DNA of 56,325 bases from a virus (Duplodnaviria > Caudoviricetes), in the IMG/VR virus record IMGVR_UViG_3300031524_001649, positions 1 through 56,325 of that record; one strand, 5' to 3'. The translations under genes were made by a program, and so were the position numbers. Positions 3,565-40,851 of this stretch are shown here, piece after piece; position 1 is the stretch's first letter, and each line of letters opens with the position of its first letter. Below the pieces are notes generated by a model. It was not told where the DNA came from. It did not search any database and saw only the letters and a list, made by a program, of their open reading frames with translations.

Positions 3565-4017
3565 TCAGCCTTGGTTGGCGGCCATCTTGAGTCCCGGCGT
3601 CATGCGCTTGACCGGCTCCACGCTGAGTTGCCGGCTGATCTGCTTGAGGGCTTGGACGTACTTGCCTTGGACCTCCAGCGTGCGGTAGTGAGCCTGCCGT
3701 TCGGGGTTCGATAAGTTGGCCTCGTCTACCGCCTGGTTGCGCCGAAAGGCGCGGAACAGCTTGAAGCGGGCCAAGTCGCCGTGGCGAGCGTTGTACACGG
3801 CCGCCTCAGAGTCGGTGAGCACTCGCAACCCGCTCCCTTCGGTCTTGATTGTTGCGGGCCGGCCCAGGCACCGTAGCCCGTGTTCGATTTCCTGCCGGAG
3901 CTGCATCAGGGCGAACTGGTACTCGCGGGTGCCCTCCATTTCGCCGGTGATTTCCTCAATCTCGGTGGGCGAGAGGTAATCGCCCTTCTGCAAATGCTGC
4001 ACGTCGATGATCTTCAT
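3565..4017 (-). CDS. Hypothetical 150-aa protein directly downstream of the pentamer array; candidate accessory factor
   Basis: GAGGAG RBS before ATG at 4017 (MKIIDVQHLQ...); start is 23 nt past the last array repeat. Confidence 0.75.
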   Translation of the reverse strand: MKIIDVQHLQKGDYLSPTEIEEITGEMEGTREYQFALMQLRQEIEHGLRCLGRPATIKTEGSGLRVLTDSEAAVYNARHGDLARFKLFRAFRRNQAVDEANLSNPERQAHYRTLEVQGKYVQALKQISRQLSVEPVKRMTPGLKMAANQG

Positions 4018-4040
4018 AGTTCTCCTCGCATTGGAAGGGG

Positions 4041-4633
4041 GTTCATTCAAGGAAGCCCTCGCTTGCGAGAAGGCTTCGTGGAAGGAACCTTACCACGCCC
4101 TACCATGCCGCACCCGACCGGACCTTACCGTGGATTCATTCCAGGAAGCCCTCTCGTGAAAGAGAGCTTCGTGGAAGGAACCATGCCCAGCCATACCTTA
4201 GCCCGCCCCGCTCAGTCCAGCCTCGCCACGCCTTACCGAAACACGCCGTAGATTCATTCAAGGAAGCCCTCTCGTTGAAAAGAGGGCTTTGTGGAAGGAA
4301 CCTGACCGTACCAGACCCCACCTTGCCGCGCCGTACCCGGCCCCACCACAGAAGATTCATTCGAGGAAGACCTCGCTTACGAGAGGGCTTCGTCGAAGGA
4401 ACCGTGCCTTGCCTCACCAAGCCCAACCCCGTCCCGCCAAACCGCACCATACCGGACTCGGTTTCACCCGGCCCCGCCACACCATGCCCTAAAAGGTTCA
4501 TTCCAGGAAACCCTCTCGTGAAAGAGGGCTTCGTGGAAAGAACCACGCCTCGCTTCGCCGCGCCACACCTGGCCCCGCCACACCTCATCTCGCCCCGCCA
4601 TGCCTAGTTCCGGCCCTCTCGCAAGAGAGGGCC
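4041..4633 (-). repeat. Hairpin-repeat / GGY-NN pentamer array; putative multi-guide ncRNA, not a canonical CRISPR
   Basis: Five conserved repeats at 4041-4089, 4134-4182, 4252-4302, 4355-4403, 4496-4544 (minus-strand consensus GGTTCCTTCCACGAAGCCCTCT-loop-GAGGGCTTCCT(G/T)GAATGAAY). They alternate with tracts of 8, 13, 9, 17 and 12 phased pentamers at 4090-4129, 4183-4247, 4303-4347, 4404-4488, 4545-4604. A perfect 9-bp leader hairpin lies at 4612-4633. Confidence 0.93.
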
Positions 4634-4650
4634 AGAGCCGAGTTTCTCCA

Positions 4651-5226
4651 TCAGGCTGCCGCCACAATCTCGAAGCGGCCGAAGCGCGGCCGTCCATCCA
4701 ACAGGCCCGCCATGCGCCCGGCGGTGTCCACGAAGTCGATCACTTCCTTGGCGTCGAACACCTCCTCCAGGTAGTGGACGGTGAACTTGCACTCCCAATT
4801 CTTGAACATCGGCCGTGTCCGCATCACGCGGCTCTGTCCCACGACCACCCCGGCCACGTAGCGGAACCGCTCGTCTTCCCACAGGGTCTCGGGCGTCTTG
4901 GGACCGTCGTAGATCACCGGGAAATTGCCATCCACGATGATGGCGCTCTTGGCGTCCTTTCCCTTCTTCGTTTTCTTGGCCCCGGCGACGATGGTGCCTT
5001 CAATGACTTCGCCCGGAAGCACAGCCCGCCCCTGGTCGTCCGCGTACAGGCCGCCGAGGAACTCCAGGCGGGCCAGTTCGGCATGGTCTTCGTCGGTCTT
5101 CTTCCGCTTGCTGGTGACGGCCTTCATCGCCTTGGCAAACTTGTTCATGGGGTTGGCAAGTTGGCCGTTGTGCATCAGCAACGGGGCGACACCGCGAATG
5201 TGGAAGTCGATGGTCTTGTAGCTCAT
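4651..5226 (-). CDS. Solitary Cas7/RAMP-like RNA-binding protein (191 aa)
   Basis: GAGG RBS, ATG at 5226. N-terminal strand IRGVAPLLMHN, LPGEVIEGTI (cf. iPGSslKG of Csm3/Cmr RAMPs) and C-terminal Gly-rich loop AGRMAGLLDGRPRFGRFEI; abuts the array. Confidence 0.75.
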   Translation of the reverse strand: MSYKTIDFHIRGVAPLLMHNGQLANPMNKFAKAMKAVTSKRKKTDEDHAELARLEFLGGLYADDQGRAVLPGEVIEGTIVAGAKKTKKGKDAKSAIIVDGNFPVIYDGPKTPETLWEDERFRYVAGVVVGQSRVMRTRPMFKNWECKFTVHYLEEVFDAKEVIDFVDTAGRMAGLLDGRPRFGRFEIVAAA

Positions 5227-6068: not shown

Positions 6069-7343
6069 TCAGGATGACCCCCACACCGCGCGATGGGGGT
6101 AGTCGAGCGGCGAGAGGCCGTTTTCGGCGGCGATGCGCTGGCAATAGTCCCGGTCCAGTTCGATCAGCGTGCAAGGCAGATTGATGCGTTTACACACACG
6201 CAACGTCGTGCCCGTGCCGCCGAAGGGGTCCAAGACCTTGCCGCCCGGTGGCGTAGTCAGCTTGACACACCGCTCGACCAGCCCTTCGTTGAGTTGCGTC
6301 GGGTGCCAGGTGCGGCGCTGCTTGCTGTTGCCCGTGACCCGTGGAAAACTGAACACGTCGCTCAGACTGAGTTTTCCGGTGGCGTGCTGCCACGTCTTCC
6401 CTTCACGAATGCTGCGGATTACCGTGTCGCTCACGCCATATTGCGAGGCCAACTCGACATTTGAGCCGGTGGATTGATAGATGCGGACGGCATCTTCATT
6501 GCTCAGTTTTGCCAGTCCGTTCTGCTCCCCCTGGGGATGCTGTCCGCGGCCTTTGGCTTCCTTGTCGTTGTTATTGTCAGCATCGGAGCCGATAAACAGG
6601 TGGGCTGGATTGCAGCAGCCCGGATTGTCACAGCTATGCAGTACCAATTGGCCTACTGGGTCAGTGCCGTGTGTCAAACGCCACATAAGGCGTGTTGCCA
6701 CGTACAGCTTCTCGCCGATTCGGAAGCGGCCGTAGCCTTCGCGTTTACCGGCCAGCCACTCCCAGCATTCCGTCGCTCCGCGGCGGCCGATTTTGGCCAG
6801 GAACCGTTCAACATCCTCGGGGCTCCAAGGCGGCAGCGGAAGTGTGTTCCGGTCGTAACAATCACCCGAAGCCACGTCGCCGGGGACGCGCCCGCGGGGA
6901 TCGGCCCGCTTGTCGCCGTTCTCTTGCCGCCAACTCGGTACGCGGACCGCATCCGGGTAGAGTGGGGCGTGGCACCAGCGGAGCCGCAAGAGCGGCCGGT
7001 GATTGTTCCCCAGGTCATGGTGGTTGTGCTGCCCAAAGGTGAACGTTTGGACGCACGGCTTGGCCTCCAATTCTCCGGCCCGGAGCCCGACGATCTCGGT
7101 GACAATCCGGCCGACCTCGAAGGTCCATTTCGAGTTGTAGCTGAACCAGACCGTGCGGGCCTTGAGCACGAAGGCTTGGAGCCAGCGGCGCAGCATCGCT
7201 ATGTACTCACCCTCGTTCAGCCGATCCCGGTAGCTGTCGTAGCCCAAGCCGATGTTGTCAGGCGGGTCCCCGAACAGGGTATCCACGGGCGCAAGGGTTT
7301 CGAGCACGTCCAGGCAGTCGCCGTTATAGAGGTGATACTTCAC
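6069..7343 (-). CDS. N4/N6 DNA methyltransferase (beta class) carrying an in-frame HNH endonuclease insertion
   Basis: GTG start overlapping the upstream stop; GDCLDVL, DPPD (motif IV variant), HPTQ, LDPFGGTGTT; insert contains CWEW..GYG, LHSCDNPGCCNPAHL and an HTH. Confidence 0.85.
   Translation of the reverse strand: MKYHLYNGDCLDVLETLAPVDTLFGDPPDNIGLGYDSYRDRLNEGEYIAMLRRWLQAFVLKARTVWFSYNSKWTFEVGRIVTEIVGLRAGELEAKPCVQTFTFGQHNHHDLGNNHRPLLRLRWCHAPLYPDAVRVPSWRQENGDKRADPRGRVPGDVASGDCYDRNTLPLPPWSPEDVERFLAKIGRRGATECWEWLAGKREGYGRFRIGEKLYVATRLMWRLTHGTDPVGQLVLHSCDNPGCCNPAHLFIGSDADNNNDKEAKGRGQHPQGEQNGLAKLSNEDAVRIYQSTGSNVELASQYGVSDTVIRSIREGKTWQHATGKLSLSDVFSFPRVTGNSKQRRTWHPTQLNEGLVERCVKLTTPPGGKVLDPFGGTGTTLRVCKRINLPCTLIELDRDYCQRIAAENGLSPLDYPHRAVWGSS
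6354..6880 (-). mobile_element. HNH homing-endonuclease-like insert bounded by 8-bp direct repeats
   Basis: CACGTCGC at 6354-6361 and 6873-6880, 519 nt (173 codons) apart; removing the insert restores PGDVFSFPRV. Confidence 0.7.
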
Positions 7344-7588
7344 TTGTGGCTCCGTTTCACGGCCGCATAGGTGCCAACCCAGTTGCCCAGGCCGTAGGCG
7401 ATCACAGCGGGAATGCACCTTTCCACGATCAAGACCGTGGAAAAGAGCGTGCAGACGTAAAGCACGACGGCCAGGTTGGCAGCCAGAGCGGCGCACCGCC
7501 GTTGCACGGACTCGACGCACCAGGTCCACACGTAATCCAGCACTGTCCCGGCCACGAACGCGAGGAAGAAAATGCCGACATCGGTCAT
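7340..7588 (-). CDS. Small membrane protein (3 TM)
   Basis: Hydrophobic; overlaps both neighbours by 4 nt. Confidence 0.7.
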   Translation of the reverse strand: MTDVGIFFLAFVAGTVLDYVWTWCVESVQRRCAALAANLAVVLYVCTLFSTVLIVERCIPAVIAYGLGNWVGTYAAVKRSHK

Positions 7589-7845
7589 TGTCCGGGCAAC
7601 TCCAATCGGGGCTTCGTTGGGGATGGGACGGCCTTCCGCAACCCAAGAGTAAGAACAGGGACCAAATCGGCGTCGCCGAAGACCTCGCCGCGCAAGGTGT
7701 ATTCCAGCGTGATCGAGGCGTCTTCCGTGCCGTGCTTGTTGATGGCTGCCTCCAGGGCACGGAAGATTTCGGCGAGACGGGCCGGTGTGAGCTGGGCCAG
7801 TTGCACGCGCTGAAGGAGCAGAGGAGGAATTGCAAACATAATCAC
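7585..7845 (-). CDS. Hypothetical protein
   Basis: Translationally coupled in operon. Confidence 0.6.
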   Translation of the reverse strand: MIMFAIPPLLLQRVQLAQLTPARLAEIFRALEAAINKHGTEDASITLEYTLRGEVFGDADLVPVLTLGLRKAVPSPTKPRLELPGQ

Positions 7846-9968: not shown

Positions 9969-10181
9969 TCACTGTTTGCCGAACGGAATCTGATGCCAGA
10001 CGCGCTCGTGGTAATAGAAGAGGATCAGCTTCACGATGAAGCACACGGCCGTAAATACGGCGCAACCACCGAGGTTGCCGAACATGGCGTAGGCCAGTCC
10101 AAAGCAGACAAGATTGCTGAAGGTCTCCCACGACAGCGCCTTGATGACCGACCGCCTGCGGGTGCTTGGATCAGGCTTCAT
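9969..10181 (-). CDS. DUF2061-like small membrane protein
   Basis: RSVIKALSW..LFYYHERVW..IPFG signature. Confidence 0.8.
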   Translation of the reverse strand: MKPDPSTRRRSVIKALSWETFSNLVCFGLAYAMFGNLGGCAVFTAVCFIVKLILFYYHERVWHQIPFGKQ

Positions 10182-10725
10182 GGGGGTCCTCGCCGGTGAA
10201 GTCAAAGAAGTACCAACGGTTGAGCCGATCGATCACCGGATCGTGGGCGATGTGCCGCAGGTATTGGTAAATCTCGTCCCAGGTTGAAAAGATCAGTTGA
10301 TGCGGCAGCATGGCCAGCAGCCAAAGCGGCGTGTATTCCTTGCCGCCGACGAGATGCACGATGATCGGTTTCTTCTGGCGGTTGGCGTTGGCGATCTCCT
10401 CGTGCGTCCCGAAAGTGGGCACGTCGGGGTCCAAGTTCACGACCAAGAAGTCGCTGATGTCGGTCATGCGGAGATCGACGCAGCGAATCGTCTTCATAAT
10501 GTTGCGCACGGCGTCATAGTCGTGGGCACGTCGAGCCTGAATCAACTCCTGCTTGGTCTCCAGCGTTTCTCGACCGATGGCGGTTGGTTTGTCGGTCGGA
10601 TCGAGCCAGCGAACGCGCAGGTCCGCCAGCGCGAGTTGAATGGCTTGCCGCCACTCAATTCCGTTGGTGGCGTCCTTCTCCATCGCGCCGGCGAGATAAC
10701 AACGGTTGTTGGCCAATCGGTTCAT
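10171..10725 (-). CDS. Nucleoside 2-deoxyribosyltransferase-like / dNMP N-glycosidase
   Basis: YLAGAM..W..DP..DLRMTDISDFLVV..GTHEE..KKPII. Confidence 0.8.
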   Translation of the reverse strand: MNRLANNRCYLAGAMEKDATNGIEWRQAIQLALADLRVRWLDPTDKPTAIGRETLETKQELIQARRAHDYDAVRNIMKTIRCVDLRMTDISDFLVVNLDPDVPTFGTHEEIANANRQKKPIIVHLVGGKEYTPLWLLAMLPHQLIFSTWDEIYQYLRHIAHDPVIDRLNRWYFFDFTGEDPHEA

Positions 10726-11423
10726 GGCAGCAGCTCCCTGTAGCGAGAGGACCCGAGTCGCGTGCAACCCAGACCGAGGTACAGCGCCGCATCGGCATAG
10801 GTCTTGATGCCGCCGCTGGCCTTGACTTGGGCCGCGCCTTGCACCGCATCCAGCATCAGTTGCACGGTCCCAGGCGTCGCGCCACCAGGCCCGAAACCGG
10901 TCGAAGTTTTCACAAAGTCCACGCCGCAATCCACGCAGAGTCGACAGGCATCCACGATCTGGCCCGGCTGGTAGTAGCTAGTCTCCAGCACGGCTTTGAT
11001 GAGAGCCCTCTTGGTGCGCGCCAACTGGACGATGCGGCCGAGTTCCTGGACCACGACCACTTCGCGGCCTTCCAGGAAGCGGCCGAAGTTTATCACCACG
11101 TCCAGTTCCGCGGCCCCGTCTTCCATCGCTGCCCGGGCCTCGGCGAACTTGACATCGGGCGACATGTTCCCGTGTGGGAAGCCAATGACCGAGCACACCC
11201 GCGACGTGATTTGCCGCGCGACGGCGACGTTGTAGCTGGTCACACAGATGGAAGCGCAGCCCATGTCTTCGACCGCGCGGGCGGCGGCGGTCACGTCTTC
11301 CAGCCGAGCGTCCGGCCGCAAGACGGCCAGGTCTAGCGCGTGGATTATCTGGTCTCGACTGATGGCCGGCCATTCTCGGTCCAGCAGCTTCTCTGTGATG
11401 ATGTCAGGGGCGTCGGACGGCAT
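10722..11423 (-). CDS. deoC: Deoxyribose-phosphate aldolase
   Basis: VIGFPHG, ELDVVIN, KAVLET, FVKTSTGF, VKASGGI, RLGSS. Confidence 0.95.
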   Translation of the reverse strand: MPSDAPDIITEKLLDREWPAISRDQIIHALDLAVLRPDARLEDVTAAARAVEDMGCASICVTSYNVAVARQITSRVCSVIGFPHGNMSPDVKFAEARAAMEDGAAELDVVINFGRFLEGREVVVVQELGRIVQLARTKRALIKAVLETSYYQPGQIVDACRLCVDCGVDFVKTSTGFGPGGATPGTVQLMLDAVQGAAQVKASGGIKTYADAALYLGLGCTRLGSSRYRELLP

Positions 11424-12549: not shown

Positions 12550-13374
12550 TCAGAAGTTGGTGAAGAGAACTTCGATCTTGTTGCTGCACTCGCCCCGGCG
12601 CTCGCAGGCCCCGCGGCGGGGCGTGTCGCGCTCGATGCGATTCCAGTCGGCGAAGAAGCTGTCGGCGGCCGGCGACTCGGAAACCACCACCCTTGCGCTG
12701 GCTGCCTTCAGCAGCCCGACCATCGCCGGGTAGTCGATCCGGTAGCGATATTCCTTCTCATGCCCGACATACGGTGGGTCCACATAGATCAAGGTGTCCG
12801 GGCCAGTCTTGTAGACCCGCTCGATGGCCGCCAGTCCATCCTCGTGCAACAGTTCGACATCGCGGACACGATTGGCGGCCGGAAGCACCCGCAGGAACCA
12901 GTCGGCCCAGACAGAGGGCGACGGCTTGTGCGCGGCGGCGCACTTGTCGAGCGACCAGGTTGACGAGTTGCCGTTGCCGCAGTAGAACTGCGCGCCCTGG
13001 GCCATCAGCAACACCGCCTCCTCTATGTCACCCGGCGGCGGTAAATTGCGCCAATTGGCGGCCGTGTAGGGCGTGGCCCAAAGCAGGGCGGCCAATTGTT
13101 CGGGCTGTGACTTGATCGCCCGCCACATGCCCATGATGCGGTCGTCCAGATCGTTGATGATCTCGATGAACGCCTTTCGTTTGGCCAACAACACGGCGGC
13201 CGAGGCGCAGCACGGCTCCATGTAGACCCGGTGCTCTGGAAAGTGGGAGACAACCCACTTCGCGATGGTTGCCTTGCCGCCGTATTGGCGATAGGTAATC
13301 TTGGGTGTCGCCGTGCTCACAGTGTTTGCTCGAAGGTTGAGATAGTGACGGGCTGACCTAGGAAACACGCTCAT
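12550..13374 (-). CDS. Dam/D12-class N6-adenine methyltransferase
   Basis: YGGK, EP(CCASAAV), INDLD, YVDPPY; start may be GTG at 13320. Confidence 0.85.
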   Translation of the reverse strand: MSVFPRSARHYLNLRANTVSTATPKITYRQYGGKATIAKWVVSHFPEHRVYMEPCCASAAVLLAKRKAFIEIINDLDDRIMGMWRAIKSQPEQLAALLWATPYTAANWRNLPPPGDIEEAVLLMAQGAQFYCGNGNSSTWSLDKCAAAHKPSPSVWADWFLRVLPAANRVRDVELLHEDGLAAIERVYKTGPDTLIYVDPPYVGHEKEYRYRIDYPAMVGLLKAASARVVVSESPAADSFFADWNRIERDTPRRGACERRGECSNKIEVLFTNF

Positions 13375-13386
13375 TGTGGGTGTTCT

Positions 13387-13932
13387 CTATCGCCGCCTCT
13401 GGATCGCCGTGCAGTACGCGCCGTTCAGCGAGCTGTTCTGCAACAGTCGGGCGTTCTCCTCGCCGTAGGCCAGAAGCACGGATGGACCACCGGAGTTGCC
13501 CTTGGCCCTGGTTCCGTCGGGTCGATAGAAGTACAGTCGCCCCTCCAGAAACAAAGCGCCGACAACCTTGCCCCAGACATGCTCGAAGAACATCGCCGTC
13601 TCCGTCCGCGCGAAGACCAAGGCGATTCCGTTGCCGTGCCGGCTCAGGTGATCCAACCACAGACCGGTCTGTTGACCATAGGGCGGATTGAGCCAGATGC
13701 GGCCGAACCACCGCAGTTGCAGACCATCTTGCGGCGGGGCGTAGTGGTGCTTGGCCGTCATCCACGGCTGGCCTGGAGCGGCACAAGGGTCGAGGTCGAA
13801 GGACCCCAGTGTGTCGATTATTTCCGGCGGCGTCAGCCAGCAGTCGGTTTGTCCTTGCACGGCCCGGGTATGGCTTCCGATACCTGTCTTCGCTCCATGC
13901 CTCGCCCGTGCGAGCTTGACAGGTTCAGTCAT
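13387..13932 (-). CDS. Phage N6-adenine methyltransferase
   Basis: WLTP..FDLDPCA..WLNPPYG..ARTET. Confidence 0.88.
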   Translation of the reverse strand: MTEPVKLARARHGAKTGIGSHTRAVQGQTDCWLTPPEIIDTLGSFDLDPCAAPGQPWMTAKHHYAPPQDGLQLRWFGRIWLNPPYGQQTGLWLDHLSRHGNGIALVFARTETAMFFEHVWGKVVGALFLEGRLYFYRPDGTRAKGNSGGPSVLLAYGEENARLLQNSSLNGAYCTAIQRRR

Positions 13933-15247
13933 AGGTATCCGCCTGAAAGGTCGTGTGAACGCCGATTTCGATCCGCTGCCGAGCCGTCTCGAAGCTTTCG
14001 GGTTCGAGTTCTATCCCGACGAACCGATTGCCGGTCAGCAGTGCGGCGATGCCCGTCGAGCCCGACCCCATGAACGGATCGAGGACCAGCCCGCCGCCGG
14101 GTGGCGTGACGAGGCGGCATAGATATTCCATGAGTGCGCGAGGTTTGACGGTGGGGTGGTTGTTCTCGACCTGGCCTTCACACGTGCGGTCTCGCTTCGT
14201 GGCCTTGGCGCAGTAAAAGAAGCGTGAGGCACCGCCTGAATCGCCATGTTGGTTGTGCGGCCCGGAATGCCCGCGAAGGAAACTGGTCACGTTCTCACCG
14301 GGATACGGGGCGATAAGCCGTTTCATCGCGCCGCTTTTCGTGATGCCGCTTTGCTCGTCGAGCAACCTGCCCGCTTCCTCGTCCAATAGCAGATTGGCTG
14401 GCCAACGTCCCTTGGCATCACCGCCGCGTGGGCCGGGCGTCGCAGCGAAATTGGTCGAACCGCGGTCGGAGTAACGCTTGTTGGCCGTTGTCTCGCCGTC
14501 GCGCAGCCCGCCCTCACCGGTACCGATTCGCGAGCCGTCGATGTTCAGGCCCGCGACGCCATGGCGCTGCGCGTTCTCGGCGAATGTGCCATCGAGTGGC
14601 TTCATTGCCAGGATAATGGGTTCCCATGCCGGTTTCAGAGACGAGCCCCAGCCGTCCCAACGCCTGGCGATTTCGGTGGCCGGCGCCGTGTCGAGGATCT
14701 CCACGTTGCCGGTCTTGCCGTGCCGCTGGCGATTTTGGAAACTGTCGCCGCGGATGTCGGGTTGCTGGCGGCGGCCGACGCTTTCCCGGGTCGCCCCGGC
14801 CAGCTTGTCGAGGGCCTTCGACATATCGTGCGACTTGGGGAAGCCGGAACCGTAGAGCCACATCAGGCAATCGCGGATCTCGAAACCGGCATCTTCGATA
14901 GCACAAGTCAGACGGTGAAAAGTCCGCGTGCCACCAAACGCCAGGAGCATCGCCCCCGGCTTCAGCATTCGGAGCACCTCGGTCCAAAAGTCGGACTGAA
15001 AGGCCGTGTCGCCGCCGTCCCAGGTCTTGCCCATGAAACCCCGCGAGCCGATCCGCATGCGGCCAAAGGGTGTTTCCGGATCGTTGTTTCGCGGGCTTCC
15101 CTTTCGGCTCGCCTGCGTAAGGTGATAGGGCGGGTCGCAGACACATGCCGTGAACTGCCCAGCCTCTAGTGAAGGGAGCACCTCGCGGGAGTCCCCTTGG
15201 TAAATCGTGGCCTGGTCGAACGTGATGGACATGTGTTTGTCACTCAT
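13925..15247 (-). CDS. N4/N6 DNA methyltransferase (beta class)
   Basis: CDPPY, GFPKS, KPAWEPI, HPTVKP, LDPFMGSGST. Confidence 0.9.
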   Translation of the reverse strand: MSDKHMSITFDQATIYQGDSREVLPSLEAGQFTACVCDPPYHLTQASRKGSPRNNDPETPFGRMRIGSRGFMGKTWDGGDTAFQSDFWTEVLRMLKPGAMLLAFGGTRTFHRLTCAIEDAGFEIRDCLMWLYGSGFPKSHDMSKALDKLAGATRESVGRRQQPDIRGDSFQNRQRHGKTGNVEILDTAPATEIARRWDGWGSSLKPAWEPIILAMKPLDGTFAENAQRHGVAGLNIDGSRIGTGEGGLRDGETTANKRYSDRGSTNFAATPGPRGGDAKGRWPANLLLDEEAGRLLDEQSGITKSGAMKRLIAPYPGENVTSFLRGHSGPHNQHGDSGGASRFFYCAKATKRDRTCEGQVENNHPTVKPRALMEYLCRLVTPPGGGLVLDPFMGSGSTGIAALLTGNRFVGIELEPESFETARQRIEIGVHTTFQADTYD

Positions 15248-15390
15248 GGAATCAACCAAAGGAGAAGTCGAAGAATGGTGCCAACCGTCGATCAACACGC
15301 CCCAGCCAACCCGAATGAGGAGAAGTTGGCTCCCGGCCGCTTCGCACGGCGGCCCGCGTGCGGCTTATGGGCCTATTGGCGTAGTGGCGA

Positions 15391-28934: not shown

Positions 28935-30011
28935 CTACATTGAAGCCAGACGGGCGGCGGCAATTTCGCAGTGCCGCTCTTCCGACTCGATGCCGATGCA
29001 AGCACGGCCGAGCGTCTTGGCCGCCAGCAGGGTCGAGCCGCTGCCGGCGAACGGGTCCAGGACCAATCCGCCAGTGGGCGTGGACAAGAGGGTCAGGAGG
29101 TACCGCATCAGCTTTAAGGGCTTGACGGTGGGGTGGTCGTTCTTTGGCCCCCGGACCGGATTGCGTTCCTTCGTGGCAGCCTTGGCGACATAGAAGAACC
29201 GACTCGCGCCGCCCGTTCGCTCGTCCAGCACACGCGCCGCCTCTTCGTCCAAGAGCAGGTTGGCCGGCCAACGCCCGGACGCCAAGTCGCCTGCGGGCGA
29301 CCGTTTAGCGATTTTCCAGCCGGCGTCCGTGATGGAGTCTGAGGGCGTGCGGATTGTGCTGGCCGTGCCGATCCTGCTGGCTTTGACGTTTATTCCGGCC
29401 ACGCCCCAGGTCTCAGCGTTGTGGGCCAGCGTGCCATCCAGCCGCTTCATTGCGAGGATGATGGGCTCCCAGGCTGGCTTGAGCGCATTGGCCCAACCGG
29501 TCCATTGCTTCGCCAATTCCGTGGCCGGAGCCGTGACGGCGCACTCCGCGGCCGGATTGTGCAAGTCGCCATAGACCTCGTTCGTGCGGCCATTGTCCGC
29601 CAACGAATAGCCGGGCCGGCCCAGCTTGGTGCCGACGACCTCGCGCCGGGCTCCCTTCGCTTTGTCGATCAGCACGCCGATGTCCGGGGCCTTGGGAAAG
29701 CCCTGACCATAGAGCCACATCAGGCAGTCACGAATCGCCCATCCGGCATCTTCGATCGCGCAGGCAAGCCGGTGGCACGTTCGCGTGCCGCCGAAGGCCA
29801 GCATCAATGCGCCCGGCTTGCAGACCCGCTGAATGGCTTTCCAATACGGGACGCCGGGAACACCGTGGTCCCATTCATGTCCCATGAAGCCGAGGCCGTA
29901 GGGAGGATCGGTACAAACGAAGTCTACGGAGGCTTCCGGCAGCGTCGGTAGCACCTCGCGGTTGTCGCCGCAGTAGAGCGTGATGTTGTCTTTCTCGTAG
30001 TAAGGCTTCAT
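28935..30011 (-). CDS. N4/N6 DNA methyltransferase, paralog of 13925-15247
   Basis: Start MKPYYEK; TDPPY, GFPK, KPAWEPI, HPTVKP, LDPFAGSGST. Confidence 0.9.
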   Translation of the reverse strand: MKPYYEKDNITLYCGDNREVLPTLPEASVDFVCTDPPYGLGFMGHEWDHGVPGVPYWKAIQRVCKPGALMLAFGGTRTCHRLACAIEDAGWAIRDCLMWLYGQGFPKAPDIGVLIDKAKGARREVVGTKLGRPGYSLADNGRTNEVYGDLHNPAAECAVTAPATELAKQWTGWANALKPAWEPIILAMKRLDGTLAHNAETWGVAGINVKASRIGTASTIRTPSDSITDAGWKIAKRSPAGDLASGRWPANLLLDEEAARVLDERTGGASRFFYVAKAATKERNPVRGPKNDHPTVKPLKLMRYLLTLLSTPTGGLVLDPFAGSGSTLLAAKTLGRACIGIESEERHCEIAAARLASM

Positions 30012-30532
30012 CGTTGCGGCTTGTATTCCAGGAGGAGCGTGCGGTCGGGTGCCTCGCGGGCGCGGTAGTCGCTCCACACGTTCAGGCCCGCGCCGCAGAA
30101 AAGGCCGTAGACCTTGTTGAAGCCGGCGCGTACGGGCGGCTCGGCGTTCGTTACGGACCCTGCCGCCACGGCGTCGCGCCACTGGGCCAAGGTTCCCGTC
30201 ACCACGGCCGCCGTGACGCCGCGAACCGTGGTCTCGGCCGTGACGAAGGGCATCCCGGCGCAGCGTTCCAGAATGTCGAGCACGTCTCGCTCGTCGGCGA
30301 CGACAAACACGCTGAACGACACATGCGACAAGAGGTTTGGCGCGAGGCCCACCGGGGCCTTCTGGTCGCAAATCGCAGCCAGGCAGCTCAGGAACTTTTC
30401 CGGCTCGGACAGCTCGCGCGACGAAGCATCGGCCGCACGCGCCGGGGAATAGCCTAGCACGTGCAGGCACGCGCCCAGGAAGGCGCGAAAGTTGACGGCC
30501 GGCGTGGTGATGAGCAACACTTCGGGATTCAT
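30008..30532 (-). CDS. Hypothetical protein, possible degenerate ThyX fold
   Basis: LLSHVSFSV and VVTGTLAQWR resemble ThyX EH.sfsF and vtgNlRew segments; no RHR motif. Confidence 0.4.
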   Translation of the reverse strand: MNPEVLLITTPAVNFRAFLGACLHVLGYSPARAADASSRELSEPEKFLSCLAAICDQKAPVGLAPNLLSHVSFSVFVVADERDVLDILERCAGMPFVTAETTVRGVTAAVVTGTLAQWRDAVAAGSVTNAEPPVRAGFNKVYGLFCGAGLNVWSDYRAREAPDRTLLLEYKPQR

Positions 30533-30698
30533 CGCGGAGCCAGGGGAAGTGTCCACGCGAGCGGCGGAACTGCTCCCGCCATTCACGCAGACCGGTGATG
30601 CCCGCCCACGAACAGTGCAGCGGGTGTGTTCTCCAAGAAACCCCGCCGGGGCCCCGGGCCACAGTACCGGGGCATGTCCGGCGGGGAGCAAATGACAC

Positions 30699-32526: not shown

Positions 32527-35199
32527 ATGCCGACTGTCAGCGAAGCTCTCTACAAGTTCCTCCACGCCCGGAAGACGCCTGCGAACGCGGATCTCATTGA
32601 TCGCTGGGGCATCAACATGGAGACGCAGGTCAACGTGGCGGTCAGCGACGGGGAACCTGTGGCCGGGAAGCGATCCACGTTCGCCAAGGGAGCCGATACG
32701 TGGCACTCCATCCGTGTTCCCCGCGACGCCAACTCGGAGCCGCATTGGGACGACTACGAACTGCGATACTCATTCACGGAGCACGCCGAAGGCATCGGCA
32801 TGACCGGCTGGGACTGGCAGAACCGGCGGTCTCGGTCGGTGGCCTTTGATTTCGACGCTTTGACCGGCCACGCCAAAGGCGTGGGTGTCACCGACGAAGC
32901 CCTGGAGCAGGTCAAGCAGAAGGCGATGCAGCTTCCTTACGTGGAGGTACGACGGAGCACCGGCGGCAGCGGGCTACACCTCCGCACCTACTTTGACGCG
33001 GCCGGCATTCCCACGGAGAACCACACGGCCCATGCCGCCTTGGCCCGCTGCATCCTGGGCATGATGTCCAGCGAGTGCAACTTCGACTTTGCCAGCCAAA
33101 TCGACGCCCTCGGCGGCGTGATGTGGGTTTGGCACCGGAAGATGACTGCCGAGAACCACGGCCTGGAGATCGTCAAGCCAGCCACCAAGGTGCTCACGGC
33201 GGCCGACCTGCCGGCCAACTGGCGAGATCATATTGATGTCGTGACACACAAACGGAGCAAAGTGCGGATCAACGAGGTCCAAGACGACGACTTGGACCCT
33301 TTCGAGGCCCTGGCCTCGGCACAAAAGATAATTCCCCTGGACGACGCACACAAGGCCCAGATCGAGGCCCTCCAGCGCTCCCATTACACCACCCTCTGGA
33401 TCGCCGACCACCACCTGCTGCAAACGCACACCTGCGCCCTCAAAGAGCTAATGGAGGGGCGGGAGGGCAAGGAGTTGAAGCTGGTCGGCATGTTCGACAC
33501 CAACTCGCAGGGCCGGAACCCGGGCAACCCCAACTGTTTCCTTTTCGCCCTGCCCAACGGTGCGTGGCGCGTCTACCGCTTCTCGCCCGGCATTGCGGAG
33601 GCCGAGACGTGGGAGCAAGACGGCAAGACCTGGACCACCTGCTATTTCAATCGCCGGCCGGAGCTGGCCGTGGCAGCCAAAGTCTATGGTGGCATCGAAG
33701 ACCCAGAAAAAAGGGAATACGTCTTCAAATCCCCTGACGACGCCTTGAAGGCCGCCAAGGTCTTGGGCCAACCGGATACAAGCCTGGACCCGATGTTCGA
33801 GGGGCGCAGGACCACGCTCAAGCCCCACAAGGATGGCCGCTTGGTCGTGGAAATCGAGCGCGTCAAAGGCGACGCCGACCAACCCGAACCCAAGGGCTGG
33901 CTCGCAAAGAAGACGAAGTGGGTCCGCGTCTTCGAGACAGTGCTCACCAAGCAGTCGGACGAGGAAACGGAGGCGATGCAGTACGATCACACGCTTCGGG
34001 CCCTCAAGACACCGGCCCAGCAGTTTCTCGGATGGCGCACGAAGGACAAGAGCGGTAAATGGGTCGGCAACCCGGCCGCCAACGTCAAGATGTTGTTGCA
34101 AAACCTCGGCAACCCAAAAGACAAAGCGGAGTGCATCATGGGTGGCGCAATCGACCAGAATTGGGAACTAGTCAGTCTGCCTTTCCGCGACGAATACCCC
34201 GGCGGCCGACAATGGAACCGTGATGCCGCGCAATTCCGCGTCCCGCCCGCAGCCCTGGAGCCGGACGAAGCTCCGCACCATCCCTACTGGGATTTGGTCT
34301 TTAACCACATCGGCATCGAATTGACGCCGGCGCTCCGCGGTCTGCCCTGGGCCGAGAAGTCCAACATCACAACCGGGGCCGACTACCTGCGGGCGTGGGT
34401 GGCATGTGCTTTCCGTGACCCGTTCGAGCCAACCCCCTATTTGTTCCTCTGGGGCAACGAGAACAGTGGTAAGAGCATCTTCCACGAGTCGTTGGAACTG
34501 CTGGTGACCAAGGGCGTTGTCAAGGCCGACAAGGTGCTTACCAGCCACAACGAATTCAACGGGGAGTTGGCCGGGGCCATCATCTGCGTGGTGGAAGAGA
34601 AGAACGTCGCTACGACCCCCGGCGCGCACGCCCGCATCAAAGAGTATGTGACCGCACGCACGTTGTCCATCCGTGAGATGCGGACCAACACCTACCAAAT
34701 ACCCAACACCACCCATTGGATTCAGTGCGCCAACTCTCAGCGGGACTGCCCCGTAATCCCCGGCGATACGCGGATCACGGTCATTGAAGTCTGCGACCTC
34801 TTGCCCGAGCAGGAAGTCCCCAAGCTGACCTTGTTGGCGAAGCTCAAGGAGGAGGCTCCGCACTTCATGTACACGCTGATGAACCTGCAACTGCCGCCGG
34901 TCATTGGGCGAATGCGGCTGCCGGTGGTCCGCACGCCGAGCAAGGCCCGCACAGAAGAACTCAACAAGAGCCCCTTGCAGCAATTCCTGGAAGACTGCTG
35001 CATCGTCAAGGAAGGAGCACGCCTCCGCTTCGGCGAGTTCTACGACGCCTTCGAGAAGACGGTGGACGCGGGCGAAAAGCACGAGTGGTCGAGAACCAAG
35101 GTGGCCCGGCTGCTGCCCAACCGCCACCAAATCTACAAGACCCACGGCCAAAAATGGGTTCCCAACGTGGCCTTCAAGGCATCGGAGGCCGACCAATGA
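32527..35199 (+). CDS. Primase-helicase (AEP-like primase + C-terminal P-loop NTPase)
   Basis: FDFD and RSTGGSGLHL primase motifs; Walker A GNENSGKS; HNEFNGEL..EE. Confidence 0.8.
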   Translation: MPTVSEALYKFLHARKTPANADLIDRWGINMETQVNVAVSDGEPVAGKRSTFAKGADTWHSIRVPRDANSEPHWDDYELRYSFTEHAEGIGMTGWDWQNRRSRSVAFDFDALTGHAKGVGVTDEALEQVKQKAMQLPYVEVRRSTGGSGLHLRTYFDAAGIPTENHTAHAALARCILGMMSSECNFDFASQIDALGGVMWVWHRKMTAENHGLEIVKPATKVLTAADLPANWRDHIDVVTHKRSKVRINEVQDDDLDPFEALASAQKIIPLDDAHKAQIEALQRSHYTTLWIADHHLLQTHTCALKELMEGREGKELKLVGMFDTNSQGRNPGNPNCFLFALPNGAWRVYRFSPGIAEAETWEQDGKTWTTCYFNRRPELAVAAKVYGGIEDPEKREYVFKSPDDALKAAKVLGQPDTSLDPMFEGRRTTLKPHKDGRLVVEIERVKGDADQPEPKGWLAKKTKWVRVFETVLTKQSDEETEAMQYDHTLRALKTPAQQFLGWRTKDKSGKWVGNPAANVKMLLQNLGNPKDKAECIMGGAIDQNWELVSLPFRDEYPGGRQWNRDAAQFRVPPAALEPDEAPHHPYWDLVFNHIGIELTPALRGLPWAEKSNITTGADYLRAWVACAFRDPFEPTPYLFLWGNENSGKSIFHESLELLVTKGVVKADKVLTSHNEFNGELAGAIICVVEEKNVATTPGAHARIKEYVTARTLSIREMRTNTYQIPNTTHWIQCANSQRDCPVIPGDTRITVIEVCDLLPEQEVPKLTLLAKLKEEAPHFMYTLMNLQLPPVIGRMRLPVVRTPSKARTEELNKSPLQQFLEDCCIVKEGARLRFGEFYDAFEKTVDAGEKHEWSRTKVARLLPNRHQIYKTHGQKWVPNVAFKASEADQ

Positions 35200-38144: not shown

Positions 38145-39206
38145 TCAATCGCCTCCCGAACACCCCGCGGCCACGTCAATGTAACTGAGATCGAGCGGGA
38201 CGGTCGAGTCGTCGCCGCGCCTCAGCGCCGTGAACCCCGCCTCGTACATCATCTCCCGGCAGTCGTCCATGTCGATACCACGATTCCTGGAGGTGTCGGC
38301 CTCGGTGTCCCTAGGATTTGCACCCGTCTCGGCGTAGACCACATTAGCCCCCGCAGTCAAGCCGAGCAGGTTTGGCTCGTGGACGGCAATGTTTTGCGTC
38401 TCCGAGCAGCACAGCGTGGCAAGGCTGACCACAGCCACGATTTGGGCGAGGCGAAGCTCGGTGATTTGGCCCCGGCTGCTCAGCGGCATTCCCGGCACGA
38501 ACACACGCCGCATCGCGGCGTGCTGGAAGCACCCGTACTCGATTCCCAGGAACATCTGTTCTACCAGTTCCTCGGCCGTGTGCTCCGGACCGATGGGTTC
38601 GCAGCAGTAATAGAAGTCGAGTCCCGCGTCCCGGATCGTGCGGAAGGTCTTTTTCCGCTCTTCGGGTGCAAGCTGCGTGTCTGTGCCTTCCCGGAGGCGG
38701 CAGACGTGATACGCCCCGTGGACGCCTGCTTGTCGAAGCTCCTTCGCTTGCACAGTGTCGAAGTCCCCAATGTTCACCACGATCTGGGTCTGCGGCGGAA
38801 TGGACCTGCGTGCTGCTCGGATTACTTCGAGCAGGTGATCCAAGGCGAAGTCGTGCATGGTCATCAAGAACAAGGCATACAGATCGCCTTCTCGGGCGAA
38901 CGCCTTCGCTCGCGCGAGGATTTCTTCGAGTGGCATCCGACTGCTCGGAAACTGGGTGTGGCCCTTCCCGAAGACGCAGAAGCCGCAATTGCCGGGGCAT
39001 GGGGCAGTCTCGATGCCGATCTGTCCCAGGAGCATCGCTTGATTGCCGAATCGCCTCCGGGAAGCTTCATCGGCGACCGCCATGAGGAATCGCGTCTCCA
39101 AGGATCGCTCCGGGAACCCCAGGAGATACACGCAATCCTCCTTGGTTGGTCCATGTCCATCCAAAGCCGACGAGAGAATCCGCGAGAGTCGTTGCGGTAT
39201 TTGCAT
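38145..39206 (-). CDS. Biotin synthase-like (BioB/HydE/PylB clan) radical SAM protein
   Basis: CPGNCGFC; AGANVVYAE..NPRD C-terminus; GGGAG RBS. Confidence 0.8.
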   Translation of the reverse strand: MQIPQRLSRILSSALDGHGPTKEDCVYLLGFPERSLETRFLMAVADEASRRRFGNQAMLLGQIGIETAPCPGNCGFCVFGKGHTQFPSSRMPLEEILARAKAFAREGDLYALFLMTMHDFALDHLLEVIRAARRSIPPQTQIVVNIGDFDTVQAKELRQAGVHGAYHVCRLREGTDTQLAPEERKKTFRTIRDAGLDFYYCCEPIGPEHTAEELVEQMFLGIEYGCFQHAAMRRVFVPGMPLSSRGQITELRLAQIVAVVSLATLCCSETQNIAVHEPNLLGLTAGANVVYAETGANPRDTEADTSRNRGIDMDDCREMMYEAGFTALRRGDDSTVPLDLSYIDVAAGCSGGD

Positions 39207-39453
39207 CAGTGAATCTCCCCAAGTCTTCCAAGCAGACCGGACGACGTTTCAAACCACTGCCAAATGCAGCCCACAAAGCCGTGTAGCGGTGCCCCACCGC
39301 AGGCGGCAGAGTTTGCCGGGCATGCGCCGTAAACGCAAGAGTTTATATGACATGCTCCGATATTGGAATATGTCGTCTAATGTGCGCGGCGAGGGTTACG
39401 AATTCCGCCACCGGCGGCGGTGCGAAGCATTCCCACCGATCAGGGGGATAAGA

Positions 39454-40851
39454 ATGCGTGTTCGCGTGGCTGTCGCGACGTATTGGGTTGCCATTTTCAT
39501 CGTGGCGGCACCCGGCTTCGCACAAACGCCGGAGCCATCGCCGCTCTCCCGGGCGTTGTGGCTATCCGAAAGAGACGGCATCACGCAGCCGGCTGCGTCC
39601 GATCCCCCGCCTGTGGATTTGAATGCGGAGCAACCATCGCCGACACACGAAGGGCCGACCGGGGGGAATCCGCCACCATCGTCCGCAATGTCTCCCCCTC
39701 CAAGCCAAGACGAAGCCAACGGCGCATGGCTTAATACGCCCCTACTGAAAGACAGCTTCCTGGAAGATTGGGGACAAGCCGTTGCGAAATGGAAATCCCA
39801 GTGGCCGCTATCCGTGAGCGGCGGGGCCTACAACTGGTGGCACGTCAACAACGGTGGGCCCTTGGCGAGCGGATACGGCGTCCCGTCGATGCCCGGCACC
39901 CACTCCTATTACTTGTTCGTCGATAACGAAGAGCCTGTTGAATGGGGTGACATCACCAAGATCGGCGCGCACGTCCAGGCGCGATTCCGCGACAGCGGCG
40001 TACCATTGCGGCCGTTCTACGTCAACGATGATTTCTGGCTCTGGGAAGCATACGGCTTCCTCGATACGCCGCTCGGACGCCTCAAGATGGGTTCCGTTTA
40101 CCGACAGTTCGGTCTGTTCTGGGACGATTCTTGGTGGGGCAACGTGCAGTACATGGACGGCCTGAAGCTTCGCAGCGATTACGGAGTCTCGTTGGAGGAC
40201 ACACCTGACTTCAAAGACGACTTCAAGATTGATCGCTACTTTCAGTTCTTTTTCGCCCAGAGTCGTGTTAGCGGCGCAATCCTCGGTGCCGATTCCGACA
40301 GCTTCGCCGGTTCAGAAGCACGGAATACCTTCATCGCGCGTGTGGTTCCTACGTGGAAACTGGGCGAGAAAGAAACCTTCGCAGCGGGCCTCTCGGCGAC
40401 CGTGGGCGAAATCGACAATCAGCCAACGCTGATCGAGTACGGAACAAATCAGGTCTTTGCCAGTCCGGGGGATCAGACCGTTTCCGGTTGGGCGGTCGAT
40501 GGCACATGGACCAAGGGTCCATGGAAGCTTTTCGCGGAAGTCTCCCAACTCTACGGCACGCTCACTCCCAGTCACTACATTTCTGGTGGCCCGAGCAACC
40601 GCTATACGGACGGGCTGGCGGGGATCACCTACACGCGAGGCCCCCTGACCTATCGTTGCGTCTACTCCTTTGGCGTCTACGACAATCCTTATGGACGCCA
40701 GGGGATGCTCGTTCCGGGAATCACGGCTAAGATCACCAGCAACGTCACACTCTGGTTGGAGTACACCTATTGGGACTCGCAAGCCGGTTCCTCGTCACCA
40801 TGCTCAGTGCTGGAAAACGGCTATCAGTTGGTTCTGGACTGGCATTTCTGA
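39454..40851 (+). CDS. Outer-membrane beta-barrel / porin-like protein
   Basis: Signal peptide, Pro-rich linker, alternating aromatic beta strands, terminal LDWHF. Confidence 0.7.
   Translation: MRVRVAVATYWVAIFIVAAPGFAQTPEPSPLSRALWLSERDGITQPAASDPPPVDLNAEQPSPTHEGPTGGNPPPSSAMSPPPSQDEANGAWLNTPLLKDSFLEDWGQAVAKWKSQWPLSVSGGAYNWWHVNNGGPLASGYGVPSMPGTHSYYLFVDNEEPVEWGDITKIGAHVQARFRDSGVPLRPFYVNDDFWLWEAYGFLDTPLGRLKMGSVYRQFGLFWDDSWWGNVQYMDGLKLRSDYGVSLEDTPDFKDDFKIDRYFQFFFAQSRVSGAILGADSDSFAGSEARNTFIARVVPTWKLGEKETFAAGLSATVGEIDNQPTLIEYGTNQVFASPGDQTVSGWAVDGTWTKGPWKLFAEVSQLYGTLTPSHYISGGPSNRYTDGLAGITYTRGPLTYRCVYSFGVYDNPYGRQGMLVPGITAKITSNVTLWLEYTYWDSQAGSSSPCSVLENGYQLVLDWHF

Follow-up and report, generated by a model that had tools for sequence, protein, structure and literature searches.

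On the minus strand of the IMG/VR provirus record IMGVR_UViG_3300031524_001649, five tracts of GGY-NN pentamers follow each other, and their NN dinucleotides vary from unit to unit. The locus raises the question whether these variable dinucleotides carry information and which partner would read them. The window analysed is the whole stretch of 56,325 nucleotides (nt; 56 kb) of this record, which is estimated to be 55% complete and contains phage replication, methylase and tail genes according to Pfam and phrog matches. The initial annotation, made from the letters alone, had proposed that the dinucleotides are guide letters that read two bases and skip one at the codon wobble position (NNx). 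This agrees with the 1-nt skip rule published for VIPR, short for Viral Interference Programmable Repeat, and a Vipr gene adjoins the tracts. Since the GGY-NN tracts and their conserved tails lie beside this gene, the region is very probably the guide-RNA array of a VIPR system, carried by a provirus whose host probably belongs to the Pirellulales (Planctomycetota).

VIPR is a CRISPR-like DNA silencing system described in 2026 in two preprints (bioRxiv 10.64898/2026.04.26.720920; 10.64898/2026.04.26.720927). According to the available parts of both, Vipr is a small RAMP-like protein that polymerises on a guide RNA, the vrRNA, with one protomer per pentamer, and a vrRNA consists of 9-16 YNNGG repeats and an invariant structured 3' tail. 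Vipr sequesters GGY and presents NN, which pair with double-stranded DNA, passing over one target base in each unit. This base lies mostly at a codon wobble position, either strand can be targeted and no protospacer adjacent motif is needed. Binding represses transcription, and the natural targets are rival phages, prophages and satellites. For these homologous systems, the 1-nt skip rule rests on binding assays, GFP repression and cryo-EM. The first preprint (10.64898/2026.04.26.720920) accepts a target at an NN match of at least 80%, reports VIPR systems without self-targets and finds, in the part available, that the guides of the Pseudomonas fulva clade mostly match lysis-lysogeny regulators. 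Furthermore, satellite-borne standalone vrRNAs that redirect the VIPR of a phage have been described in a third preprint of the same year (10.64898/2026.10.15.759431, as far as that text was available).

The vipr gene and the five-module array

The open reading frame (ORF) directly upstream of the array matched the PDB entry 36pp_D 'SUSP1 Vipr protein' with E=2.7e-36 (residues 21-204) and phrog_4652 with E=1.6e-58. It is 39% identical to agp039 of phage SUSP1, and Vipr homologs of Pseudomonas phages are ~38% identical; judged from the protein sequence, this likeness of 38-39% suggests type II. In total, 1167 homologs could be identified at E<=1e-10, mostly of ~190 amino acids (aa), for which reason Met18 of the 208-aa ORF (position 5226) is probably the start codon. 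The structure preprint names 11 contact residues of SUSP1, of which nine are identical here (H17, K33, R39, E71, K82, K88, R138, D177 and R179) and two are exchanged (M72 and W178).

The minus strand carries five modules from position 4040 to 4604, each consisting of a (GGY-NN)n tract with a strict 5-nt period followed by a conserved hairpin tail of 50-52 nt (Table 1). The register was fixed by cutting the minus strand in 5-nt steps locked to each hairpin start, and it is unbroken within each tract. This resulted in 12, 17, 9, 13 and 8 NN for tracts 1 to 5, and the five NN lists of the initial annotation were reproduced letter for letter. Degenerate GGY units were found in tract 1 (two), tract 2 (three) and tract 4 (four), and none in tracts 3 and 5. 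The pentamer GGTTC, present in five copies, is the end of every tract and at the same time the start of the conserved tail. A six-unit GGYNN pattern gave 11 matches in the 56-kb record, all of them on the minus strand within 4087-4584; the plus strand and the backwards control gave no match. A looser tract caller, run on both strands of the window, detected no tract beyond the five.

All five NN strings are distinct. Tandem Repeats Finder reported only weak 15- and 20-nt periods, restricted to tract 1, and the tracts are for this reason not regarded as ordinary microsatellites; the earlier proposal of guide-like strings, as opposed to slipped repeats, was thus borne out. The 'spacers' between the tails measure 40-85 nt, always multiples of 5, and are themselves GGY-periodic, unlike a CRISPR array with its identical repeats, near-constant unique spacers and nearby cas genes; no cas family was detected among the 51 ORFs scanned with Pfam. 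An Rfam search of the whole window resulted in no match at gathering score, with two chance-level miRNA rows around the array (E=0.69 and 9.3), and a blastn search of the array against 50,697 phage records gave no match.

Neither a sigma-70-like promoter nor an intrinsic terminator was found within the array, which fits co-transcription with vipr and subsequent processing. A contig from an RNA library is identical to 4536-4779, spans the 3' end of vipr and tract 1, and gives a weak hint of expression. The RNA runs X19 and X20 cover small parts of the stretch only, with contigs unable to show transcript ends. At least part of the stretch was recovered in 20 runs from 19 studies, comprising peat, bog and permafrost metagenomes. 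In one contig of a bog metagenome (run X10), belonging to a relative with 68 differences, position 4404 is joined to 4625; the end of vipr and one tail are shared, and the tracts between them are unalignable, as expected for hypervariable guides among strains.

Relatives, strand linkage and covarying tails

A single-sequence search with Vipr in viral contigs revealed no relatives, and these were found by an alignment-based search. The eight-unit GGYNN pattern is present in at least 134 viral contigs, often as several tracts together with locus-specific conserved linkers between them. Linkage to the strand of vipr was counted in 138 Vipr-homolog loci, 80 from viral contigs and 58 from genomes. 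A tract of at least six perfect GGY units was found on the vipr strand in 110 of the 138 loci and on the other strand in a single one (304 versus 1 tracts). As a separate observation, a single tract of locus L144 keeps the GGY period in one register through 142 units without a break (710 nt, positions 1451-2160), which is longer by far than the vrRNAs in the available parts of the preprints; it may represent a staggered or overlapping array.

Scanning viral contigs for a 17-mer of the tail resulted in 103 stretches. Among those scanned, only locus L044 had a run of at least five GGY units, and it is a true relative; the other stretches were taken for chance without individual checking. The viral contig L044 carries two vrRNAs, and locus L335, from a Pirellulales metagenome-assembled genome (MAG), carries three beside a Vipr of 79% identity. 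The tail type of the window is shared by both and by a third locus, the viral contig L255, and the order of vipr followed by the array is kept in L044 and L335. Because the closest Vipr and primase homologs are found in Pirellulales, these bacteria are assumed to be the host. In L255 (4190-5320), 11 successive tail-like motifs stand behind degenerate repeat units, many of which have GAT, AGT or TGT at the place of GGY; this array could be decaying or follow a variant consensus.

For the tail alignment, 20 sequences were used, the five of the window and 15 from the three related loci (10 of the tails of L255 were included). The aligned tails form an interrupted hairpin of 19 pairs, the outer arm of which is the last GGTTC unit, and 97.1% of the cells are paired. 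Changes on both sides of a pair occurred in 40 cells, compared to 12.5 in shuffles (0 of 500 reached 40), and the slid controls paired in only 38-60%. This tail type is common to the clade sharing this Vipr, and the vrRNAs of SUSP1 itself resemble the tracts described here.

The array is followed by a 150-aa ORF. In 36 of 140 Vipr-homolog loci, including L044 and L255, a homolog of this ORF adjoins vipr on its strand (tblastn, E<=1e-3). It is therefore considered a candidate vipr-accessory gene (vap), the product of which binds DNA in type II systems. Its similarity to vap1 of SUSP1 is weak (BLASTP E=0.037, hhalign E=0.16). A Foldseek search with its AlphaFold model (pLDDT 86.8) gave no match at E<=0.001, with several winged-helix proteins among the weak top rows, and nothing was found against PDB sequence profiles. 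The short hairpin between vipr and tract 1 may mark the 5' side of vrRNA1.

Table 1. Features of the array and its surroundings, with positions in the window
Feature	Position	Strand	Basis or remark
vipr, 191 aa from Met18 of a 208-aa ORF (ORF to 5277)	4651..5226	minus	RAMP-like protein, predicted to coat the vrRNA; directly upstream of the array
Short hairpin just after the vipr stop	4609..4636	minus	I12 (inverted repeat) and D4 (direct repeat family); stem similar to the tails' inner stem
vrRNA1 guide tract, 12 NN (guide 1)	4545..4604	minus	5-nt cutting
Tail 1, GGTTC...GAACC interrupted hairpin	4495..4544	minus	tail alignment
vrRNA2 guide tract, 17 NN (guide 2)	4404..4488	minus	5-nt cutting
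Tail 2	4354..4403	minus	tail alignment
vrRNA3 guide tract, 9 NN (guide 3)	4303..4347	minus	spells G-R-T-A-K/N-G-L-T-Q/H
Tail 3, loop 2 nt longer	4251..4302	minus	tail alignment
vrRNA4 guide tract, 13 NN (guide 4)	4183..4247	minus	spells V-S-K/N-V-D/E-C/W-C/W-G-G-K/N-I/M-W-I/M
Tail 4	4133..4182	minus	tail alignment
vrRNA5 guide tract, 8 NN (guide 5)	4090..4129	minus	5-nt cutting
Tail 5	4040..4089	minus	tail alignment
150-aa ORF, candidate vap	3565..4017	minus	after the array
Phage's own copy of the guide-4 site	33091..33128	plus	inside the primase-like gene 32527-35199

Candidate targets of the guides

Targets of the five guides were searched at gap lengths of 0-3 and scored against shuffled guides. 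Large collections were scanned with exact seeds, and the mismatch-tolerant scans covered 251-351 genomes of the order to which the Pirellulales MAG belongs. With the array masked, the best self-matches at gap 1 were 17/24, 23/34, 14/18, 17/26 and 12/16 for guides 1 to 5, all at most 78% and within the shuffled null. The best self-matches of guides 2 and 4 both fall into ORF 39043-40851 and were treated as chance because this ORF has no homolog in the relatives. The ORF itself (plus strand, 602 aa, no family match) lies between replication and tail genes. In its interior, one stretch resembles a signal peptide, and its C-terminus, ...DWHF, is like that of an outer-membrane barrel. No target was found for the five guides in 1.45 Mb of fetched loci, nor in the window for five guides of relatives. 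In three related viral records and 120 kb of related prophage, none of the five guides had a clear target apart from a primase lead of guide 4, and in a comparison of guides 1, 4 and 5 with five records the matches were absent or level with the control.

The guide-4 lead scored 20/26, in frame, in the relatives' homolog of the phage's own primase-like gene, as found in the three related viral records and the related prophage. The gene of the window, which matches DUF5906 and the phrog_1829 DNA primase, has 14/26 at its own copy of the site, versus 16-21/26 at the same site in the rival homologs. Primase homologs were found in 17 of 151 genomes of the order. In 23 of 26 fetched primase loci, the best guide-4 site of the locus was this same in-frame site with 16-21/26, the last seven units being often perfect ('CGGNMWI'), and three loci reached 21/26 (81%) in frame. 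In a 1.2-Mb set of rival (pro)phages, a score of at least 19/26 was obtained at 17 sites with gap 1 and at 0, 2 and 0 sites with gaps 0, 2 and 3; the 17 sites are homologs and not independent events. Shuffles averaged 0.56 such sites at gap 1, with at most 4 (0 of 300 reached 17). At up to three mismatches, guide 4 had no match in 251 genomes. Judged by these alignments, a replication gene of rival elements appears to be the best-supported target of the array.

For guide 3, the Pirellulales MAG has two in-frame matches of 16/18, one in an HTH_3 gene and one in a serine recombinase located 3.4 kb from a primase homolog. The serine-recombinase family was detected in 55 of 151 genomes. Of 30 loci of this family, eight had an in-frame guide-3 match of 16/18 (89%), a count that is not unbiased, because the family was chosen after the guide-3 match. 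In 20 of the 30 loci the best guide-3 site was the homologous 'LDRLGRTAxGLTA' site. The excess occurred only at gap 1, with 11 sites of at least 15/18 versus a null maximum of 2. The comparison of gap lengths with shuffles that the initial annotation had suggested thus gave an in-frame excess, at gap 1 only, for guides 4 and 3, and nothing above chance for guides 1, 2 and 5.

In two Pirellulales genomes (G001:C2:889834-894454 and G035:C160:32230-35032), a serine recombinase lies 1.4-3.4 kb from a DUF5906 primase homolog. It is possible, though doubtful at present, that guides 3 and 4 are aimed at the neighbouring serine recombinase and DUF5906 primase of one family of integrative elements in Pirellulales, with the phage's own primase protected by 12 mismatches. 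If true, this would be a second, phylogenetically remote case of VIPR directed against a satellite-like parasite or rival prophage.

The initial annotation had instead pointed to repressor genes of the host or of competing elements, reading tract 4303-4347 as the start of an XRE-type helix-turn-helix (HTH) regulator and tract 4090-4129 as the wing of a LexA-like repressor. The arithmetic of these NNx translations is correct, and the resemblance to XRE is real: metagenomes contain 14 exact guide-3 matches, of which five fall, in frame, within a single conserved protein; its tested member contains HTH_3 (E=1.5e-13) with an MBF1 match just below the cut-off. Repressor targets would also agree with the P. 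fulva-clade guides (10.64898/2026.04.26.720920, in its available part), and the HTH_3 gene of the Pirellulales MAG is matched as well as its recombinase. However, the exact matches look like eukaryotic MBF1 genes and not like rivals of a Planctomycete phage, and guide 3 had no exact match in viral contigs. With up to one mismatch, 301 genomes of the likely host order gave four guide-3 matches versus 12 for the backwards control, all out of frame, whereas serine recombinases recur in this order. The LexA likeness gained no support: none of the five exact viral matches of guide 5 lies in a long in-frame ORF. With guide 4 pointing to the primase gene and guide 3 mainly to recombinases, a pair of repressor targets for guides 3 and 5 is improbable.

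The 3' eight units of guide 1 have at least 120 viral matches. These were rejected as targets, since the extension matched 0-6 of 8 positions, as chance predicts, and the seed matches are a composition effect of codon-like triplets beginning with G. Guide 2 had no full-length match with up to three mismatches in 351 genomes and none in viral contigs for its 3' nine units with exact seeds. Gap-2 matches of guides 4 and 5 in the fetched loci are isolated, lie in unrelated AT-rich loci and were likewise rejected as chance.

The skip of one base was also examined at the level of the family. For this, guides of at least 12 NN were collected from every fetched locus, and the 234 obtained were compared with 2.2 Mb of the fetched DNA after masking of the tracts. 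At E<0.01, four matches were obtained, all at gap 1, and none at gaps 0, 2 and 3 or with shuffled guides. One of the four, belonging to guide 1 of the window, was excluded because its locus had been fetched with a guide-1 seed. An all-against-all comparison of a smaller 1.25-Mb set with raw identity thresholds gave no excess at any gap; the excess was seen in the length-aware E-value version alone. Two of the matches are reciprocal: a guide of L345, a contig of an Acidobacteria MAG, matches the viral contig L278 at 38/48, and L345 is in turn matched at 29/34 by a guide of L277, a viral contig belonging to the phage type of L278. Each of the two matches lies in frame in the major capsid gene of the other phage (Phage_cap_E, E=4.9e-124), where the two proteins differ, which looks like reciprocal targeting with self-avoidance. 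In addition, a guide of 13 NN from L159 matches another Vipr locus (L273:1474, plus strand) at 23/26 in frame 0 of a 327-aa ORF without a Pfam family.

These matches bear on another view, in which the tracts would serve for protein loading or act as RNA decoys or sponges, a ring- or filament-forming protein would read GGY, and the NN would be spacers without information. One subunit per pentamer would suit the 5-nt period, and no guide has a perfect target, but the neighbouring gene is a Vipr, for whose homologs NN-dependent DNA targeting has been demonstrated. As guides 3 and 4 moreover exceed their shuffles in frame at gap 1 only and the guides of relatives match rival capsid genes, this explanation is very unlikely. 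Little credence is likewise given to vrRNAs that mainly redirect or jam the VIPR of other phages, as decoy guides, instead of arming their own Vipr. The standalone vrRNAs of satellites offer a precedent, but the array stands directly behind an intact vipr on the same strand, in an order kept in L044 and L335, and its tail is common to the clade sharing this Vipr. That the tracts are a slipped microsatellite or a G-rich structural element without RNA role (two-tier G-quadruplexes, origin iterons) is extremely improbable. With GG at 5-nt intervals, G2N3 quadruplexes are conceivable in principle, but the NN differ in nearly every unit, the tandem periods are weak, 110 of 138 relatives have their tracts locked to the strand of vipr, and each tract ends in a covarying RNA-type hairpin.

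As a VIPR system, the locus would work as follows. The vipr gene and the five vrRNAs would be read from the minus strand, each vrRNA being a run of GGY-NN pentamers capped by its hairpin tail. One Vipr protomer would bind per pentamer, holding GGY and presenting the two N bases, and the resulting filament would pair NN after NN with double-stranded DNA, with one target base per unit flipped out (NNx). Binding would silence transcription of the bound gene. Guide 4 would be directed against the primase gene of rival (pro)phages or satellites, at its conserved '...VD-x-CGGNMWI' site, and the phage's own copy of this site would escape through its 12 mismatches. For guide 3, the most likely target among the genes of these elements would be a serine recombinase, with an XRE-type regulator as the alternative. 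The filament, the skip rule and the silencing are carried over from the SUSP1 and P. fulva preprints. The present analysis itself provides the Vipr gene, the architecture of the repeats, the covariation in the tail and the linkage of the tracts to the vipr strand among relatives, together with the absence of self-targets and the gap-1-specific, in-frame near-matches of guides 4 and 3.

Several points weigh against this reading, in addition to the homology of the guide-4 sites and the choice of the recombinase family after the fact. The VIPR preprints are not yet peer reviewed. Of the two exchanged contact residues, W178 of SUSP1, which stacks on the second G, is Gly here and M72 is Val; Gly at the W178 position is the consensus of a 46-sequence alignment of the clade. 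None of the five guides has a perfect or >90% natural target in a plausible rival, and guides 1, 2 and 5 gave nothing above chance in the scanned DNA. The last NN of guide 3 is mismatched in every recombinase locus. Taken alone, the best score of guide 4 is only moderately significant, with 7 of 500 and 5 of 500 shuffles attaining 21/26; for guide 3 in the rival set, 22 of 500 and 35 of 500 attained 16/18. Expression, processing and DNA binding at the locus are predicted only, and the RNA-library contig is possibly DNA carry-over.

Comparison with known systems and biological meaning

The closest described system is the type II VIPR of phage SUSP1, consisting of Vipr, vap1 and vrRNAs (10.64898/2026.04.26.720920; 10.64898/2026.04.26.720927; PDB 36pp). 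As far as the available parts of these preprints describe it, both systems share a homologous Vipr, vrRNAs of GGY-NN pentamers in which NN is hypervariable, a 3' tail that is structured and invariant, and an array beside vipr on the same strand. They also share the lack of self-targets and near-targets that are coding, in frame and have the skipped base at the wobble position. Besides the two residues exchanged in Vipr, the present locus differs in its host, probably a peat Planctomycete and not Escherichia coli, and in its gene order of vipr, array and 150-aa gene, compared to vipr, vap1 and array in SUSP1. The 150-aa gene is not demonstrably the vap1 of SUSP1 by the hhalign comparison given above. 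The tail of the present locus forms a long hairpin with interruptions, the last GGTTC unit being its first arm, whereas a pseudoknot, not looked for here, is reported for the SUSP1 tail. The guides reach 17 NN and fall to 8, compared to the 9-16 repeats of the vrRNAs in the preprints. With the VIPR of the P. fulva prophage the locus has in common that it is prophage-borne, that its guides point to rival resident elements and that its Vipr is of the same family; the targets described in the available text on that prophage are mostly lysis-lysogeny regulators, whereas the leads here are a primase gene and a serine recombinase.

Among other systems, the crRNA/Cas7 backbone of Class 1 CRISPR is similar in that a RAMP protein sits on a guide RNA, bases are flipped at fixed intervals and a conserved handle caps the variable guide. 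The VIPR period is 5 nt, with three guide bases sequestered and one target base skipped, compared to 6 nt, one and one in Class 1 CRISPR. As cas genes, a repeat-spacer array and an adaptation module are all missing, the locus is not a member of CRISPR. A 5-nt period is also known from the binding sites of TRAP, in which a conserved triplet (GAG/UAG) is followed by a 2-nt spacer. Unlike in TRAP, no TRAP-like gene is present, the spacers carry information and the partner protein is Vipr. A TRAP-like ring, a CsrA-type sponge and a G-quadruplex were initial readings of the tracts and were abandoned given the Vipr gene and the VIPR preprints.

Elsewhere in the window, five ORFs resemble DNA methyltransferases, all on the minus strand (6069-7835, 12550-13374, 13387-13932, 13925-15298 and 28935-30698), the first of which has an HNH endonuclease domain inserted or fused. 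Furthermore, nucleoside 2-deoxyribosyltransferase-like matches, below Pfam cut-offs, lie beside a DeoC-type aldolase at 10171-11423 (minus strand); by their sequence, these genes could hint at a modification of nucleotides or DNA bases.

The code is already published, and the locus reveals no new principle. What it does show is that raw sequence alone suffices to read the gapped VIPR code. It also offers testable natural guide-target pairs, namely a replication gene of rival elements with a contrast of self and non-self (14/26 versus up to 21/26) and a recombinase. In both its tail and its G-loop, the locus departs from the SUSP1 complex that has been solved. With this locus, VIPR extends to phages of Planctomycetes from peat and bog soils, remote from E. 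coli and Pseudomonas, whose systems served to work it out.

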